DNA from: a virus
Reading direction: 5' to 3' (one strand)
UHGV virus genome: UHGV-0126570
DNA length: 59,916 nt
Shown here: in pieces, positions 10,314 through 57,329 of the stretch
Position numbering within the stretch: position 1 is the stretch's first letter
Layout: the number at the start of each line of letters is the position of its first letter
Notes under the pieces: generated by a model
The model's database searches: none
What the model was told of the DNA's origin: nothing
What the model saw: the letters and a program-made list of their open reading frames with translations, nothing else
Position numbers and translations under genes: made by a program

Positions 10314-10726
10314 CCTGTGTGTCTACAAAACATCCCAATGATCGGAAAATGTTCGCTCGATGATTTGTATTAGAAAATTAATTTGCTGTTTCTAAATCGG
10401 AATGTATGATCTGCATCATCGACTGAAGTCATCCATTGCTGAAATTTTTAGTTGATCTTCCATGTTTTCAGGCTTATATTCATGCCGTCGTAGCAAATTC
10501 TGCGACCAGGTTTGACAGCCTGAATGTTAGTGCGGACAACCGCAGATTTCCGATATTGCGGTATTTTTGTGTCCGTAAACCGCGTTACGCCCGAATTATG
10601 GTGGGGCGTGATGGGGAGGCTTCGGCCTGCTGGTTTCACTAACGCCAGTCTGTCAACCCTGTCACGTCCTGCCACCTGTTTGACAGCGGGTAGCAGGTTG
10701 TTAAACCTGTTAGTGAGGCCGTAACT

Positions 10727-21353: not shown

Positions 21354-22562
21354 ATGAGTCAACAAACTGATACTTCTAATCTGGAAATCATCTCAGCCGC
21401 GATTGAAACGCTGCGGACACAGATCGCCCTTATTCAAAAGCGGAATCCGGGGGATGACCTGTCCAGACGGCTACATGAGAGCGTCATTGCCACTACTGAT
21501 AACCTGGTCGCGGAGATCAACCAGCTACTTGAGGAAGGGACGGTTGATTACAACAAGCTGGTGGATCAGTTTGAGGAATATCAACAAGCCGTTAATGATG
21601 GCTTGATCCGTTTTTCACAAGTCACAGGCGTATCAGCGACAGTTGAAAGTCTTGGCAATGCTGTTAATCAATTTGCCGCGAATATGCGTAGTGAGATCGG
21701 CAATCTGGAAGCGCGTCTTGAACAGGCAAACACACTGCGCAAATCCGCAGAAGCCGATTTGAGTCGTTACAAAAAAGACTATCCAGCCAGTCTGTCAAAA
21801 CGACTGGATGTTGCGGAGAAGGATAACCGTGCGCTGAAAAGAGAGCGTCGGGAACTAAAAGAGCGTTTAACAGAGCTGAATCAGCAATGCATTAAGTATC
21901 AAGGCGAAGGCGTCACACTGCGTAAAAAGTTAGCAGCAGCGCAGAACATTATTGAAACGCTGAAACGAGAGTGCTCACAGCTTGGTCATGATCTGAACCG
22001 CGCTTGTGGTATGGGACAAAGGCCAGAGACATTCCCGCTCATGTATGACGGGGTGGATGCTATTGCCTATATCCATGAGTACCCGCATGGTCTGGTTGCG
22101 GAGACTGGTCAGCGTGGTGAAGCTCTGTTGACGGCTAATTACCATCAACAAATTAGAACCAACCGCCTGCTGACGATGGATGTGATCCCATCAGTATGGG
22201 GAACGCCGCTTTACTATCGCCTGCCCGGCTTCGAAACGGACTGGAATACCGATATAGACGAATGCCTGGCAGATAAAATTATGGCGTACCTGGAGACTGA
22301 TTTCCCGCGCCTGCATCGCCGGATTATGGACTCTAAGGATGCGCCGATCGATGAATTGAAAATGCGCCCAGAGACGTTGGAAGCTATCAAACAGACTGCG
22401 TTTGATACCGTATTCAGCGTGGCCTGTATCCCAAGTAGTTTTCATGAAAGCATCCCCTTTATGCAGGGCGACCGTCGTCAAGAAATTATTGATGCCTGCC
22501 GGGTGTGGGCTAACGAATGGGACAAGAAGAATGGGGGCGTAGAAGATCTTTATGGGAAATAA
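21354..22562 (+). CDS. Hypothetical protein: N-terminal coiled coil plus C-terminal globular domain
   Basis: ORF track starts at 21270; the ATG at 21354 (MSQQTD...) lies downstream of the terminator and motif and has GGGA upstream. Confidence 0.5.
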   Translation: MSQQTDTSNLEIISAAIETLRTQIALIQKRNPGDDLSRRLHESVIATTDNLVAEINQLLEEGTVDYNKLVDQFEEYQQAVNDGLIRFSQVTGVSATVESLGNAVNQFAANMRSEIGNLEARLEQANTLRKSAEADLSRYKKDYPASLSKRLDVAEKDNRALKRERRELKERLTELNQQCIKYQGEGVTLRKKLAAAQNIIETLKRECSQLGHDLNRACGMGQRPETFPLMYDGVDAIAYIHEYPHGLVAETGQRGEALLTANYHQQIRTNRLLTMDVIPSVWGTPLYYRLPGFETDWNTDIDECLADKIMAYLETDFPRLHRRIMDSKDAPIDELKMRPETLEAIKQTAFDTVFSVACIPSSFHESIPFMQGDRRQEIIDACRVWANEWDKKNGGVEDLYGK

Positions 22563-23220
22563 TATGTTAGAAATCTAATTTCATCAAACGAACATATTGA
22601 TTGTGAGAGTAACTTAACTTAGAATTTTCCTTGCTGGTGGAGCGTTGCCACATTTCGCTTGCTGGGCTTGATAGTCACTTATTGGTTGTTGTTCGCCCAC
22701 CAGCAAATAACAAATTAAAGTGTTAGAAAATTACATGCATACAGGGACTCGCTTTGGCACCGAGCAAGCCAAAGTTCAGCAGGTTTAGTGCGTAAAGTGG
22801 TTTCAGAGAGAGCACTTTACGGAGTAAACAACAAGACATGTTGAGCCACGGAAGGTCTTTTTAAGATGTTCATTGATGATGGTCCGGCAGAGAGTAACGG
22901 GACTCGCCGCATCGAATCATCATCAATGCACATCCTCAACATTAAGGAGGCATAGGGATTTTTTTGTGGCGATTACCTTTTGCCCTAAGTCTCCTTAATG
23001 TTGCGGTAATGCACCTATGCGGATGCGGCCTTGCATTGTGTCTTGAAAGAATGGGGTAAGGCCGGGGATATCCCCAGGGGGAGGCACCCCCGCTGCAACG
23101 AACAGCCACAGACGGCAGTCGAGTGATGGAAACGTGCAAAGACTTTAAACCTCGTTACGGCTGGCGTGGCAAACGCGACAACCGAGACAGAGCGGTGACG
23201 GGCGGAGAGAGTGCCGCATC

Positions 23221-23341
23221 AAGAAAGAAGCCGACTTGTGATCCCTTTCTGCGGGCATTTGAAAGTGAATCCAGCTCAGGCAGTCGGCTTCTTTCTTGTG
23301 TGAGATGTAGCGTATTTGCCCATCTTCGGGTGGGCTTTTTT
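23221..23341 (+). ncRNA. Candidate small structured RNA (16-bp stem-loop plus intrinsic terminator)
   Basis: AAGAAAGAAGCCGACT (23221-23236) pairs with AGTCGGCTTCTTTCTT (23282-23297); then GCCCATCTTCGGGTGGGC followed by TTTTTT (23318-23341). The overlapping 85-codon ORF (23123-23380) runs through both hairpins and is probably not coding. Confidence 0.3.
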
Positions 23342-23801
23342 AGGGTTTTCGTCATGGTTAGCGACTTTGCGGCGGTTTAGAACCCGACCATTAAAGTAAA
23401 TGCAAACGATGATCTGATGATGGTAGCGGCCTAAGAAGCCTGACGCCACGGGGTATGAGTCGTCCCCCGTCAAAAAATCGACCGCAGAGTGTCCCCGTCT
23501 GTGTATTAGGGAACGGGGAGGCATAACAGGCAAGGGCGCTGGTGTGATTAACCAGATGAATGAGAAGGGTCAGGTCTTTCTGGTCAGCGCCCTTACCTGT
23601 TACGTCCCTCCCGCGTAACAGCCATTGATTAATGGCTTTCTGGGATAACATCCTACTACGGGTATATCCCGTCATGCTGAAGGCGCTAATCACGCTGGAA
23701 GCCAGGGTTGTGCATCCCCTGTTACCGAATTGCAGCCAGGGCGCGGTGCGCCGAAAAGCATACGGAGGTGGAAGCCCTCGCCGGAGACGTAACCGGCAAG
23801 T

Positions 23802-23878
23802 GATGGTGTAGCTCAGTAGGATAGAGCAGCAGCCTTCTAAGCTGTCGGTCGGTGGTTCGAATCCACCCACCATCGCCA
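23802..23878 (+). tRNA. tRNA-Arg (anticodon UCU; decodes rare AGA)
   Basis: Manual cloverleaf: acceptor GATGGTG/CACCATC, D-arm GCTC-AGTAGGATA-GAGC, anticodon stem GCAGC/GCTGT with loop CTTCTAA, T-arm GGTGG-TTCGAAT-CCACC, encoded CCA. Confidence 0.8.
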
Positions 23879-23880
23879 AT

Positions 23881-23956
23881 GCCGGTTTAGCTCAGTTGGT
23901 AGAGCGCCTGCCTTGTAAGCAGGATGTCAGCGGTTCGAGTCCGTTAACCGGCACCA
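23881..23956 (+). tRNA. tRNA-Thr (anticodon UGU)
   Basis: Acceptor GCCGGTT/AACCGGC, D-arm GCTC-AGTTGGTA-GAGC, anticodon stem CCTGC/GCAGG with loop CTTGTAA, T-loop TTCGAGT, encoded CCA. Confidence 0.8.
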
Positions 23957-23964
23957 ACACAACA

Positions 23965-24039
23965 GGTAAGGGTATTTTGCGACGTCGGAGATCGCCGTGC
24001 TTGGCAGAGGGTTCGAATCCCTACGAAGTACCCTTACCG
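23965..24039 (+). ncRNA. Non-canonical tRNA-like element (acceptor-like stem plus T-loop, no canonical D/anticodon arms)
   Basis: GGTAAGG(G)...GGGTTCGAATCCC...CCCTTACC: a 7-8 bp terminal helix and a perfect T-loop consensus, but the interior cannot be folded into a cloverleaf. Either a tRNA pseudogene or an RNase P-type processed regulatory RNA. Confidence 0.3.
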
Positions 24040-24421
24040 TTGTGATGAAGTGCAGCTCTTTGAAGCAACCAGAAGATAAGCATCTGGCTTCACAACATAA
24101 ACCGCAGGAACGACCAATAAACGGTAGTCCGTATGGAGAATACCCCGTTGAGGAAGAGGCCTGGCCGGAACCGTAACCGGCACTACAACGTTGAGAACAC
24201 TGACGTAACGGGGTCATATCCCAATCTACGAATAAATGTTGCGTTGCAGCGTGACAACCAGTGTTCTCAACGTTGTGGTGGATTCGCAGACTGATGCGAT
24301 AGCTTTCTTGGATGTTAGGGAAATGCGGCCGCAAACCTTCCCTTTCGCGAGCGGTGATCGTCCGTAGTCCTAATTGGCTGCACCGTATGCCGGAGATTCA
24401 GTACCGGCCACCACAACGGCC

Positions 24422-24508
24422 GGAGAGTAGGGAGCATGGTGCTCAAGCGGTCTTGAAAACCGTCCCATTGCGCAAGCGATGATGGTTCGATTCCATTACT
24501 CTCCGCCA
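24422..24508 (+). tRNA. Probable type II tRNA, tRNA-Ser (anticodon UGA)-like
   Basis: Acceptor GGAGAGT/ACTCTCC, anticodon arm GCGGT-CTTGAAA-ACCGT (close to E. coli serT), 17-nt variable region, T-arm GATGG-TTCGATT-CCATT, encoded CCA. D-arm and variable arm are atypical. Confidence 0.55.
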
Positions 24509-24775
24509 GCGCAACGTTAAGAGTATTTGGCTAATTAAGCGAATGCCGGAAGCAGAACCGGATCAACAAATGCGTACAGGCGTCATCGCCGCCCAGCCAG
24601 CCAAGTGCTCTTACCATTGCGGTGAATGCGGCTAAGCGCACGCGGAACAGTTAAAACAATCCTCCTTAGTGGTTAAGTCAAACATCCCGGCGTTAATTGT
24701 TAACTGGTTAACGTCACCTGGAGGCACCAGGCACCGCAACCTAATAAATACGTCATGTTTATTGAGGGATAACCA

Positions 24776-25210
24776 ATGTTCGGTAAATTTTTCGGTAAGA
24801 AAGTCGCTTCAGCAAAAGTAGAGCTGAAAAGGGTTGAGAATCGCGATCTGATGGAGGCCATTATCGGTGGCTGTTTGTTGGTGTCTGCCGCAGATGGTGA
24901 AATCGAAAAGGAAGAAACAGCGAAACTTGATCAGCTTGTCCGCTCTAATCCTCGCTTAAGTCATTTTGGCAACGAAATTACCGCAACAATCACCCGTTTT
25001 ACTGAGCAACTGGAAGCTGGTTTCCGTGTTGGTCGCATGAATATCCTTCGCGAAATTGAAGATATCAAAAATGATCCAAAAGAAGCGGAAGAAGTATTCG
25101 TTAACATGCTGACGATTGCAGAAGCGGACGGTGAAATCGAGCCAGCAGAACACAAAGTACTGGAAGAAGTAGGCCGTCGTTTGGGCCTTCGTGTGGAAGA
25201 TTATCTGTAA
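24776..25210 (+). CDS. TerB-like domain protein (tellurite-resistance TerB / TciA-like)
   Basis: 144 aa with the paired acidic helices typical of the TerB fold (...LLVSAADGEIEKEE...LTIAEADGEIEPAEHKVLEEV); GAGGG RBS. Adjacent to the tRNA-Ile2 gene, as tciA is adjacent to trnI in P1. Confidence 0.65.
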   Translation: MFGKFFGKKVASAKVELKRVENRDLMEAIIGGCLLVSAADGEIEKEETAKLDQLVRSNPRLSHFGNEITATITRFTEQLEAGFRVGRMNILREIEDIKNDPKEAEEVFVNMLTIAEADGEIEPAEHKVLEEVGRRLGLRVEDYL

Positions 25211-25493: not shown

Positions 25494-25569
25494 GGCCCCT
25501 TAGCTCAGTGGTTAGAGCTGGCGACTCATAATCGCACGGTCACCGGTTCAAGTCCGGTAGGGGCCACCA
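25494..25569 (+). tRNA. tRNA-Ile2 (anticodon CAU, lysidine-type; decodes rare AUA)
   Basis: GGCCCCTTAGCTCAGTGGTTAGAGC...CTCATAA...GGTTCAAGTCC...AGGGGCCACCA; acceptor and D-arm essentially identical to E. coli ileX. Cannot be formally distinguished from elongator Met by sequence alone. Confidence 0.75.
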
Positions 25570-47562: not shown

Positions 47563-47667
47563 AATACTGACTGTTGCGCCATGGCATTATCGTGGGGTAT
47601 ATTTCTACGGCACCTTAGAAAAACGGGTGCCGGGATTGGAACCCCGGATAATGTCAAAGGCGACACA

Positions 47668-47689
47668 GACGCCGAAAGCGTCTTTTTTT
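47668..47689 (+). terminator. Rho-independent terminator
   Basis: GACGC-cgaaa-GCGTC followed by TTTTTTT. Confidence 0.7.
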
Positions 47690-47874
47690 GTGTCATGCCA
47701 TCGCACAGCCATACGTAGCGTTTAGCTCAGAGATCAATGGTAGTGCTGGCTGGGCTGCCGAAAGGCAGGCCGGTTCCCTTTGACGCCGGTAGTTCCAACC
47801 CAGTCAGTGCTACCGCCATTGAGATTGGAACCTCACGCGGTAGCTCCTTAACTTAGTCAAAGGAGGCTGCCAAT

Positions 47875-57285: not shown

Positions 57286-57329
57286 CCAATTGTGTTAGAT
57301 AATTGAATAGAATTTTCTAACACAATTGG
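57286..57329. promoter_or_regulatory. Extended palindromic operator-like element CCAATTGTGTTAGA-N16-TCTAACACAATTGG
   Basis: Near-perfect 14-bp inverted arms, 7 bp upstream of the rdgC start codon. Confidence 0.55.

Follow-up and report, generated by a model that had tools for sequence, protein, structure and literature searches.

Gene order and features of the region

We examined a region of the virus genome UHGV-0126570 (positions 22563–23341 of the 59,916-nt stretch of DNA analysed, referred to below as the window) that a first-pass annotation had picked out as a candidate structured RNA locus, poor in open reading frames (ORFs), rich in hairpins and ending in an intrinsic terminator. The source genome can be assigned to the D6-like phage-plasmids of the P1 family. 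A 1.7-kb segment spanning the region is 93.5% identical to Escherichia phage D6; the region itself shows 93% identity to D6 and 100% to E. coli plasmids, and it is restricted to D6 and 120 D6-like plasmid records (PLSDB), which fall into identity classes of about 100, 93, 82 and 74%. An exact 18-mer scan of viral contigs likewise returned D6-like contigs only, and the same scan of genome contigs gave just chance matches in unrelated bacteria.

The annotation of D6 places a pmgS-like gene upstream of the region and transfer RNA (tRNA) genes, then tciA and tciB, downstream; ARAGORN located tRNA genes for Arg(TCT) at 23802, Thr at 23881, Ser at 24422 and Met at 25494. From 23315 on, the sequence is ~92% identical to phages P1, P7, SJ46 and RCS47, that is, the homology to P1 begins at the terminator (P1 counterpart, 68855–69645). 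In P1, the homologous downstream leader comes after the C1-controlled promoters P1ban/P2ban with their operator Op72ab, and the P1 annotation marks there a 'dicF-like region' with the same hairpin, GCCCATCTTCGGGTGGGC, and T run at its end. Based on the D6/P1 synteny and the downstream-leader homology, region 22563–23341 can be placed at the position of the P1 ban-operon control region and leader (Pban/Op72): it fills the interval from the promoter to the trn-tci genes and continues into a P1-homologous leader. Like the P1 ban operon (P1ban/P2ban, Op72ab, 'dicF-like region', trnA-trnT-tciABC-trnI-ban), the locus has a promoter beside repressor-operator-like motifs, a terminator and ~460-nt leader to the tRNAs that are 90–92% identical to those of P1, and tRNAs and tciA/tciB downstream. 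P1 differs in its upstream gene, which is dmt instead of the pmgS-like gene, in its pre-terminator leader, which measures ~180 nt compared to ~710 nt of D6-lineage-specific hairpin modules here, and in the ban helicase gene, which the D6 annotation does not show after tciB. The leader is a lineage-specific variant of the known P1 ban-type operon leader. Its features, all on the + strand, are as follows.

22564–22581, +, operator-like site O1 (ATGTTAGAAATCTAATTT), with 15 bp between it and the −35 hexamer downstream; candidate operator of a D6-type C1 repressor
22597–22625, +, sigma-70 promoter-like site TTGATT-17-TAGAAT; predicted start about 22632
22631–22706, +, hairpin A, predicted to open the transcript; two Chi sites in inverted orientation make up its stems
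22720–22737, +, operator-like site O2 (GTGTTAGAAAATTACATG), ~88 nt downstream of the predicted start
22783–22829, +, hairpin B, 19 pairs
22860–22939, +, hairpin C, about 26 pairs
22935–23005, +, hairpin D, 21–25 pairs; sequesters AAGGAGG
23003–23100, +, core E, near-invariant, with several short G+C-rich hairpins
23101–23215, +, module F, absent from two relatives (L005 and L006)
23220–23298, +, hairpin G, 17-bp perfect base and about 30 pairs in all
23318–23341, +, terminator-like hairpin GCCCATCTTCGGGTGGGC followed by T6; 7-bp stem (5 G-C pairs) and UUCG loop

A single predicted promoter and a probable non-coding, structured leader

Only one + strand promoter match was found from the upstream gene to the tRNAs, the site at 22597–22625. 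In the 74–82% relatives both hexamers and the 17-bp spacing are retained and the spacer sequence has diverged. With a start ~7 nt after the −10 hexamer, as predicted, the RNA would begin with hairpin A. At the other end of the leader, 23318–23341 is the top terminator-like site of our scan, with a hairpin free energy of −12.5 kcal/mol and the G+C-rich hairpin and U tract of a rho-independent terminator, as the first-pass annotation had proposed.

The ORFs in the region are all short (85 amino acids or less). Coding by the ORFs of 31–85 amino acids was considered and rejected: in relatives they are broken by 1–2-nt indels, module swaps, a 105-nt insertion and stop codons. Even core E carries indels of +1, +2 and −1 nt, and as indels of lengths not divisible by three are found all along the leader, we conclude that it is not coding. 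The earlier statement that there is no convincing ORF therefore stands. The ORF-poor stretch had been given as ~1.2 kb; it is non-coding, as stated, and its extent has to be revised, as it reaches the tRNA at 23802 and, with interspersed tRNAs, 24775.

The features listed in the first-pass annotation were all found within a base or two of their reported positions, and its inverted repeats proved to be real and longer than described. The first (22860–22886/22913–22939) spans 27 nt with 81% complementarity and contains an exact 11-mer (22871–22881/22918–22928). The second (22913–22957/22983–23027) has an exact 13-mer (22937–22949/22991–23003) where 10 bp had been noted, and the third (23220–23236/23282–23298) is 100% complementary over 17 nt instead of 16. 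Additional inverted repeats lie at 22631–22640/22697–22706 and 22783–22804/22808–22829. When folded, the + strand of 22632–23341 (710 nt) reached −269.8 kcal/mol compared to −226.8 ± 7.1 kcal/mol for dinucleotide shuffles (z = −6.1). The − strand reached −249.8 kcal/mol (z = −10.3); the + strand thus folds 20 kcal/mol better than the − strand.

Pairing of the leader hairpins in relatives

To follow the pairing through evolution, we built an alignment of 21 distinct D6-like sequences and mapped onto it the local minimum-energy structure calculated for this sequence; L005 and L006 were poorly aligned over part of the region. Standard pairs filled 89.3% of the alignment cells, compared to 41–50% when the partners were slid by 1–3 columns. 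Changes on both sides of a pair occurred in 70 cells, against 20–45 with slid partners and 30.5 ± 4.5 in shuffles, none of which (0/500) reached 70. Hairpin G (helix 27) contributed eight pairs changed on both sides, hairpin D (helix 13, 99.3% paired) three, and hairpin C (helix 11, 90.9% paired) two together with several G-U/A-U alternations. Hairpin B (helix 9, 91.5% paired) showed one-sided changes only. The terminator hairpin (helix 29) was 100% paired with one-sided changes that strengthen it, from U-G to C-G. Core E was near-identical even in the 74% relatives, and its helices 17–22 were 90–100% paired with little variation. In hairpin A (helix 1) the stem base was invariant among the aligned relatives and the interior variable. 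The first-pass annotation had named a lack of hairpin conservation in related phages as the result that would speak against it; what we observed is pairing retained with compensatory changes.

The strand could also be addressed. Many pairs are conserved as G-U or alternate between G-U and A-U, and a conserved G-U pair becomes a C-A mismatch on the other strand. Pairing of the leader hairpins is thus maintained in the relatives and points to + strand RNA, because G-U/A-U alternations are neutral only there, which agrees with the 20 kcal/mol folding advantage of the + strand.

These observations bear on the possibility that the repeats act as DNA, with recombination or cassette boundaries, or single-strand initiation signals, formed by the Chi pair, by inverted repeats prone to cruciform formation and by the junctions between modules, and the RNA being incidental. 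The stems of hairpin A are indeed two inverted Chi sites (GCTGGTGG; 22633–22640 on the + strand and 22697–22704 on the − strand), and Chi occurs 45 times in the 59.9 kb, compared to 1.45 expected. Furthermore, modules have been gained, lost, swapped and inverted exactly at hairpin boundaries, and the same hairpin-base sequences enclose other cargo in the tRNA region as well as in other phages. However, the conserved G-U pairs and G-U/A-U alternations, the better folding of the + strand and the conserved promoter directly upstream all argue for RNA, and we judge a purely DNA-level role to be improbable.

Known RNA families and mosaicism of the leader

The first-pass annotation had suggested a covariance-model check and had drawn an analogy to P1-family immunity, in which processed antisense RNAs are used. 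In 22563–23341, Rfam returned no family at gathering score or at E ≤ 10 beyond chance-level look-alikes of microRNAs, MicA and STnc240. The immunity analogy does not hold for the region: the C4/a1b1 models match elsewhere in the window (10474, 10594 and 47733), and C4 (RF01695) gave no match in 22400–24900. The leader would resemble C4/immI of P1 and P7 (RF01695, RF03163) in being a processed RNA of a C1-controlled operon in the same phage family, but target repeats complementary to the leader were not found. Against the rest of the window, the leader shows complementarity only at the chance level of 11–13-mers, the repeated matches being Chi sites or operator motifs. The large structured non-coding phage RNAs GOLLD and ROOL are also encoded beside tRNA genes; no Rfam match to either was found at E ≤ 10, and the leader, in contrast to them, is modular and mosaic, not one conserved fold. 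The 'dicF-like' label of the P1 module was considered as well and has no Rfam support: the DicF covariance model matched neither the leader (E ≤ 10) nor the annotated module in P1 and L004 (E ≤ 1).

The leader differs between relatives in a mosaic fashion. Module F is ~81% identical to non-coding DNA of a Pantoea P1-like plasmid (L007, 3001–3113) and of the Klebsiella Uetakevirus Kp4865-1 (L010, 3001–3072), where the copy lies inside an ORF-free stretch of ~0.9 kb. The interior of hairpin D exists in three unrelated versions, and L017 and the L004-type plasmids have replaced interiors. In one IMG/VR contig (L023) the hairpin D interior, the equivalent of 22950–22990, matches the D6 version exactly as its reverse complement and gives an additional opposite-strand match; we read this as a small inversion between the 13-bp arms. 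The L004-type plasmids carry the D6-type and P1-type module sets together, a P1-type module being inserted between hairpin G and the terminator. Such a mosaic is not easily reconciled with one precise tertiary fold or with fixed targets recognised by sequence, and a processed structural leader fits it better than dedicated antisense regulators do. The P1 'ban leader' would accordingly have to be seen as a modular structured RNA region rather than an empty spacer.

Of the two functions first proposed, small regulatory RNAs (sRNAs) or a structured leader of the tRNA operon, the second is borne out by the promoter and the covarying hairpins; the first lacks both a matching family and internal promoters. 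Could the hairpins nevertheless be separate trans-acting sRNAs, for instance with the anti-Shine-Dalgarno seed CUCCUUAAUGUUG of hairpin D pairing with phage or host mRNAs? The hairpins are conserved, a terminator closes the region, annotators labelled the adjoining P1 module 'dicF-like', and hairpin D holds a Shine-Dalgarno/anti-Shine-Dalgarno pair. On the other side, no internal + strand promoters able to drive separate sRNA genes were found in the leader, Rfam gave no DicF, C4 or sRNA match at E ≤ 10, and complementarity to the rest of the window stays at the chance level described above. Moreover, the candidate seeds are buried in long perfect stems and not in loops, and conservation is lowest in the loops; in L023 hairpin D even has an inverted interior. 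We therefore regard trans-acting sRNAs as unlikely.

Operator-like motifs

The two operator-like motifs that had been noticed at the start of the region are exact copies of RTGTTAGAAA, at 22564 and 22720, one on either side of the promoter-like site. This 10-mer has 10 exact copies across the window, and with up to one mismatch there are 20 matches compared to 7.45 ± 2.6 expected (0/100 shuffles reached 20). Alignment of the sites gave an asymmetric consensus of about 17 bp, ATGTTAGAAAAYTAATTT. The exact 10-mer of O1 is kept in all relatives. A second promoter was sought over O2 and no convincing one was found. In the L004-type plasmids a second, inverted operator copy abuts the −35 hexamer, an arrangement like the bivalent Op72ab of P1.

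The motif also has copies elsewhere in the window. One is at 10367, ~100 nt upstream of the a1b1/C4 RNA locus, and at 57292–57323 two motifs in inverted orientation (GTGTTAGATAATTGAATAGAATTTTCTAACAC) lie beside hrdC/dmt homologues and are likely to form a bivalent operator of the same repressor. The P1 operons that match the C4-locus and hrdC/dmt copies are reportedly C1-controlled. By analogy with P1, the O1/O2 motif is a candidate operator of a D6-type C1 repressor. If so, a likely operator motif and one early promoter are now defined for the D6 phage-plasmid lineage, which is common in E. coli and Salmonella.

A model for the leader

Taken together, we think it probable that region 22563–23341 comprises a repressor-controlled promoter and a ~0.7-kb modular structured leader of the early tRNA/tciAB operon in a phage-plasmid of the D6/P1 type. 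In the lysogen, a D6-type C1 repressor would shut the promoter by binding to O1, upstream of −35, and to O2, at +88, possibly with looping of the DNA. Upon induction or infection, host RNA polymerase would transcribe the leader; some transcripts would stop at the terminator and give a ~0.7-kb structured RNA, and the remaining ones would read through into a transfer-messenger RNA (tmRNA)-like element at 23344–23520, the tRNAs, a tRNA-like element (TLE) at 23957–24040 and tciAB. The stems of 20–30 bp would serve as processing or stability elements, either of RNase III type or end-protecting, that cut the precursor into modules, and would not be base-pairing regulators. The 5′ flank of the tmRNA-like RNA would then consist of hairpin G and the terminator hairpin, the last leader hairpin doubling as terminator and 5′ boundary. 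Hairpins as flanks of RNA modules are suggested by the long hairpins that end at the GUUUUCG motif of this element in other phages and by the arms these share with hairpins D and G.

Hairpins C, D and G have 25–30 predicted pairs with continuous runs of ~13–17 pairs each, and all three are predicted to offer the about two helical turns of near-continuous duplex that RNase III substrates have. RNase III processing hairpins occur in phage early transcripts, as at the R sites of T7 and in the lambda N leader, and the predicted 20–30-bp stems of the leader likewise lie between functional units of a long early transcript.

Several points weigh against this model. The structure tested in the alignment came from this sequence itself, which inflates the contrast with slid partners, and further pair types were fewer than in shuffles (96 versus 105). 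The invariance of hairpin A may reflect the inverted Chi pair, and hence DNA and not RNA. The leader is mosaic, with loss of module F, swap and inversion of the hairpin D interior and an extra P1-type module. The assignment of repressor and operator follows P1, and yet the candidate consensus ATGTTAGAAAAYTAATTT bears no relation to the operator of P1, ATTGCTCTAATAAATTT. The start site, termination, processing, repression, read-through and RNase III cleavage are all predictions. Finally, a good terminator before the tRNAs requires read-through, and no mechanism for it was found. The rival explanations nonetheless have less support than the leader model.

The last of these points leads to the idea that the leader is a cis-acting, put-like or boxA-like antitermination RNA that lets polymerase pass the terminator at 23318–23341 and the structured RNA genes. 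With the terminator between the sole promoter and the tRNAs, read-through is needed, and core E (23003–23100) is conserved far beyond its neighbours. However, no conserved likeness to boxA was seen (an AACAA after hairpin A varies at the key U residues), there was no Rfam match, and the leader with which P1 passes this terminator is unlike the present one and far shorter. We consider this explanation quite unlikely and retain the processed, repressor-controlled leader.

A tmRNA-like element directly 3′ of the terminator

Immediately downstream of the region lies a second structured element, which the first-pass annotation did not include; it had thus missed that the terminator stands at the 5′ edge of this element, and also that the hairpin family continues through the tRNA region. 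The features concerned, again on the + strand, are the following.

23344–23520, +, tmRNA-like coding-piece element, outside 22563–23341 and directly 3′ of the terminator
23402–23434, +, tag-like frame ANDDLMMVAA*, with no start codon; the frame opens after a TAG at 23378
23449–23482, +, pseudoknot a; S1 23449–23453/23465–23469, S2 23459–23462/23479–23482
23484–23518, +, pseudoknot b; S3 23484–23488/23498–23502, S4 23493–23497/23514–23518
23526–23603, +, hairpin H1, 31 pairs, 3′ of the tmRNA-like element; conserved in P1
23957–24040, +, TLE, 3′ of tRNA-Thr, with a D-arm-like hairpin and a canonical T arm (GAGGGUUCGAAUCCCUAC)

Weak but recurrent Rfam matches to permuted tmRNA prompted our reading of 23402–23434. 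The element combines a conserved 5′ motif, GUUUUCG, with the tag frame, a stop-codon hairpin and two H-type pseudoknots. The frame reads GCA AAC GAT GAT CTG ATG ATG GTA GCG GCC TAA and is preceded by UAAAU; as in tmRNA, it is a start-less tag that opens with the resume codon GCA and ends in Ala-Ala-stop. The E. coli SsrA tag is ANDENYALAA. In distant-mode blastn, ~180 nt (23343–23525) were found in about 250 phage records, nearly always unannotated. Carriers include P1, P7 and D6 in the P1 family, Bp4 and K60PH164C1 among the Schitoviridae (N4-like), Vi01, phiEa2809 and Serratia 3M among the Ackermannviridae, Cronobacter ESP2949-1 of the Drexlerviridae (T1-like), Deseoctovirus DS8 and Aeromonas pAh6-C (Chaseviridae). 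At the loci examined the element lies in non-coding DNA, in most of them with tRNA genes within a few hundred nt.

We compared 14 sequences from at least five lineages. The frame is always 10 codons long, and its last two codons vary only at the third position. The tag peptides were ANDDLMMVAA, ANDDVVLMAA, ANDDLMLMAA, ANDDLMLAAA, ANDNEFKVAA, ANDNAFLMAA and ANEEMYLAAA; Vi01, read separately, gave ANDNTFLAVA, and thus a VA end instead of Ala-Ala. RNAalifold recovered the small stop-codon hairpin, with a change from G-C to A-U in six sequences, and two more covarying stems, as well as S1 and S3 of the pseudoknots. A scripted check found compensatory changes in all four stems of pseudoknots a and b across lineages, with constant spacers. 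The two pseudoknots lie downstream of the tag, as they do in tmRNA; a further one upstream of the tag found no support from covariation, as the candidate pairs there never vary.

A hidden Markov model (HMM) built from 13 sequences outside the P1 family gave a single match, 23345–23529 (E = 3.7e-35), and an HMM built from 60 ARAGORN-called coding pieces of permuted tmRNAs in viral contigs also gave a single match, 23389–23441 (E = 5.8e-7). At the profile level, the element's homology to tmRNA coding pieces is therefore significant. The relation to ssrA is significant in profile-level comparisons only: direct alignment of the downstream leader with E. coli ssrA scored 32 compared to 32.5 ± 5.7 for shuffles, which is not significant, and the Rfam scores stayed below threshold (RF04321, 22.8 bits here and 33.5 in phiEa2809 with gathering at 47; RF00023, 6.5 bits). 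In its resume context, UAAAU followed by GCA AAC GAU GA, the element resembles tmRNA and permuted two-piece tmRNA (RF04321/RF01850), and its 5′ motif resembles GGUUUCGAC of permuted phage tmRNA. It shares with tmRNA the start-less 10-codon tag ending in Ala-Ala-stop, the stop-codon hairpin and the downstream H-type pseudoknots, but it is only about 180 nt long.

The tRNA-like half

In contrast to tmRNA, no acceptor stem, G3-U70 pair, T arm or 3′ CCA was detected for the element. ARAGORN with default settings called no tmRNA in this sequence, in P1 or at the other phage loci tested, and at thresholds of 95–70% it gave differing, poor and mutually inconsistent candidates for each lineage. In Bp4, a one-piece call at the 90% threshold reuses an annotated tRNA-Cys(ACA), and nothing equivalent was found in the close relative, Klebsiella phage K60PH164C1. 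That tRNA-Cys(ACA) (L054, 2673–2751), which directly follows the tag element, has a poor acceptor stem, and its annotation is doubtful. The P1-type module upstream of the terminator was considered as the tRNA-like half and rejected: it has a covarying hairpin followed by ACACCGRG, without T loop or ACCA. In phage DS8, a promoter-like TTGACA-17-TAGATT (10/12 matches) has its −10 hexamer ending 12 nt before GUUUUCG; this position implies that the element can be a transcription unit of its own without an upstream piece. We consider it very unlikely that the decayed acceptor piece and intervening hairpin of a circularly permuted tmRNA gene, with 23344–23520 as its coding piece, survive in hairpin G and the sequence before the terminator, because, despite the significant coding-piece homology and an order here (hairpin, GGGUUUUCGUC, tag) that recalls bona fide permuted phage genes (3′ tRNA domain, hairpin, 5′ tRNA domain GGUUUCGAC, tag), the upstream part lacks T arm, acceptor 3′ strand and ACCA, ARAGORN is negative by default and inconsistent at 70–85% thresholds, and the promoter-like site of DS8 would leave no upstream piece co-transcribed in that phage.

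The TLE has a T arm (also given as GGGUUCGAAUCCC) but no anticodon arm; it is closed by a helix of ~20 bp, with A-U at position 3:70 and no CCA end. It was not called by ARAGORN or by the Rfam tRNA model. It is present in all P1-family loci, and the viral contig L118 has it immediately upstream of the tag element.

Phage tmRNAs that have been listed include mycobacteriophage tmRNAs, that of Bacillus phage G and the 'TLD-only' tmRNA of DS6A, and the element is not among them (PMC4131195, PMC11915505). Mycobacteriophage DS6A shows that phages can carry one tmRNA half (PMC4131195; PMC11915505); it keeps the tRNA-like domain without the tag, whereas 23344–23520 keeps tag and pseudoknots without the tRNA-like domain. 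We found no mention in the literature consulted of the tag peptides, of a tmRNA-like RNA in P1 or of transcripts of the region. As far as this literature shows, an RNA with tag and pseudoknots and without the tRNA-like domain appears undescribed, and prior mention elsewhere is possible. The classic model phage P1 and about 250 other sequenced phages carry an unannotated RNA in which a tmRNA tag is conserved at the peptide level and the pseudoknots covary, and in which no tRNA-like half was detected.

What might such a piece do? We put forward tentatively, and as a possibility that we hold with some doubt, that P1, D6 and at least five other enterobacterial phage groups carry a functional 'orphan' tmRNA coding piece of ~180 nt. 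It could team up in trans with a separate tRNA-like piece (e.g. 23957–24040) or with host factors, which would amount to a phage split tmRNA that tags proteins with peptides of the ANDDLMMVAA type. Alternatively, it could be a decoy that redirects or blocks host trans-translation. If the element is used by ribosomes, these phages supply a degradation or rescue tag of their own; if it is a decoy, it represents a new interference with ribosome rescue. In both cases hairpin G and the 'terminator' would be a 5′ processing flank, and the leader part of a modular RNA-cassette array.

A family of related hairpins

In most of the other lineages the GUUUUCG motif marks the exact end of a long hairpin, whereas in the P1 family the short terminator hairpin and U6 stand there. 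The arms of hairpin G resemble hairpins flanking the tmRNA-like element in other phages. Related arms (CAACAGGUAAGGG ... CCCUUACCGUUGUGG) surround unrelated interiors in hairpins D, G and H1, in the TLE and at 24181–24280, and arms of this type are also found, in other phages, in the hairpins on either flank of the tag element. The five hairpins may therefore represent shared processing sites or a family of RNA cassettes bounded by hairpins. Given these shared arm sequences, here and in other phages, region 22563–23341 seems to belong to a longer series of RNA modules bounded by hairpins.

Other RNA genes in the window

Further observations concern the tRNA region. The tRNA at 23802–23878 is Arg(TCT) here; in D6, P1 and most relatives it is Asn(GTT) with the same acceptor stem, which looks like an identity switch through replaced inner arms. 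The tRNA-Ser(TGA) at 24422–24508 is not among the Rfam tRNA hits at gathering threshold and scores 46.6 bits on the tRNA-Sec model (gathering, 47); it was flagged as unusual by the D6 annotators, too. Just upstream of tciA, 24618–24738 has a sub-threshold match to Rfam STnc100 (39.4 bits; gathering, 47), which is likewise seen in P1 and L004 and suggests a conserved structured 5′ untranslated region.

Elsewhere in the window there are two separate genes for C4 antisense RNA, at 10474–10679 and 47610–47820 (77 and 69 bits). One of them has a1/b1 target repeats and the other is preceded by an isrK-like RNA, so the plasmid may carry two immI-type modules.

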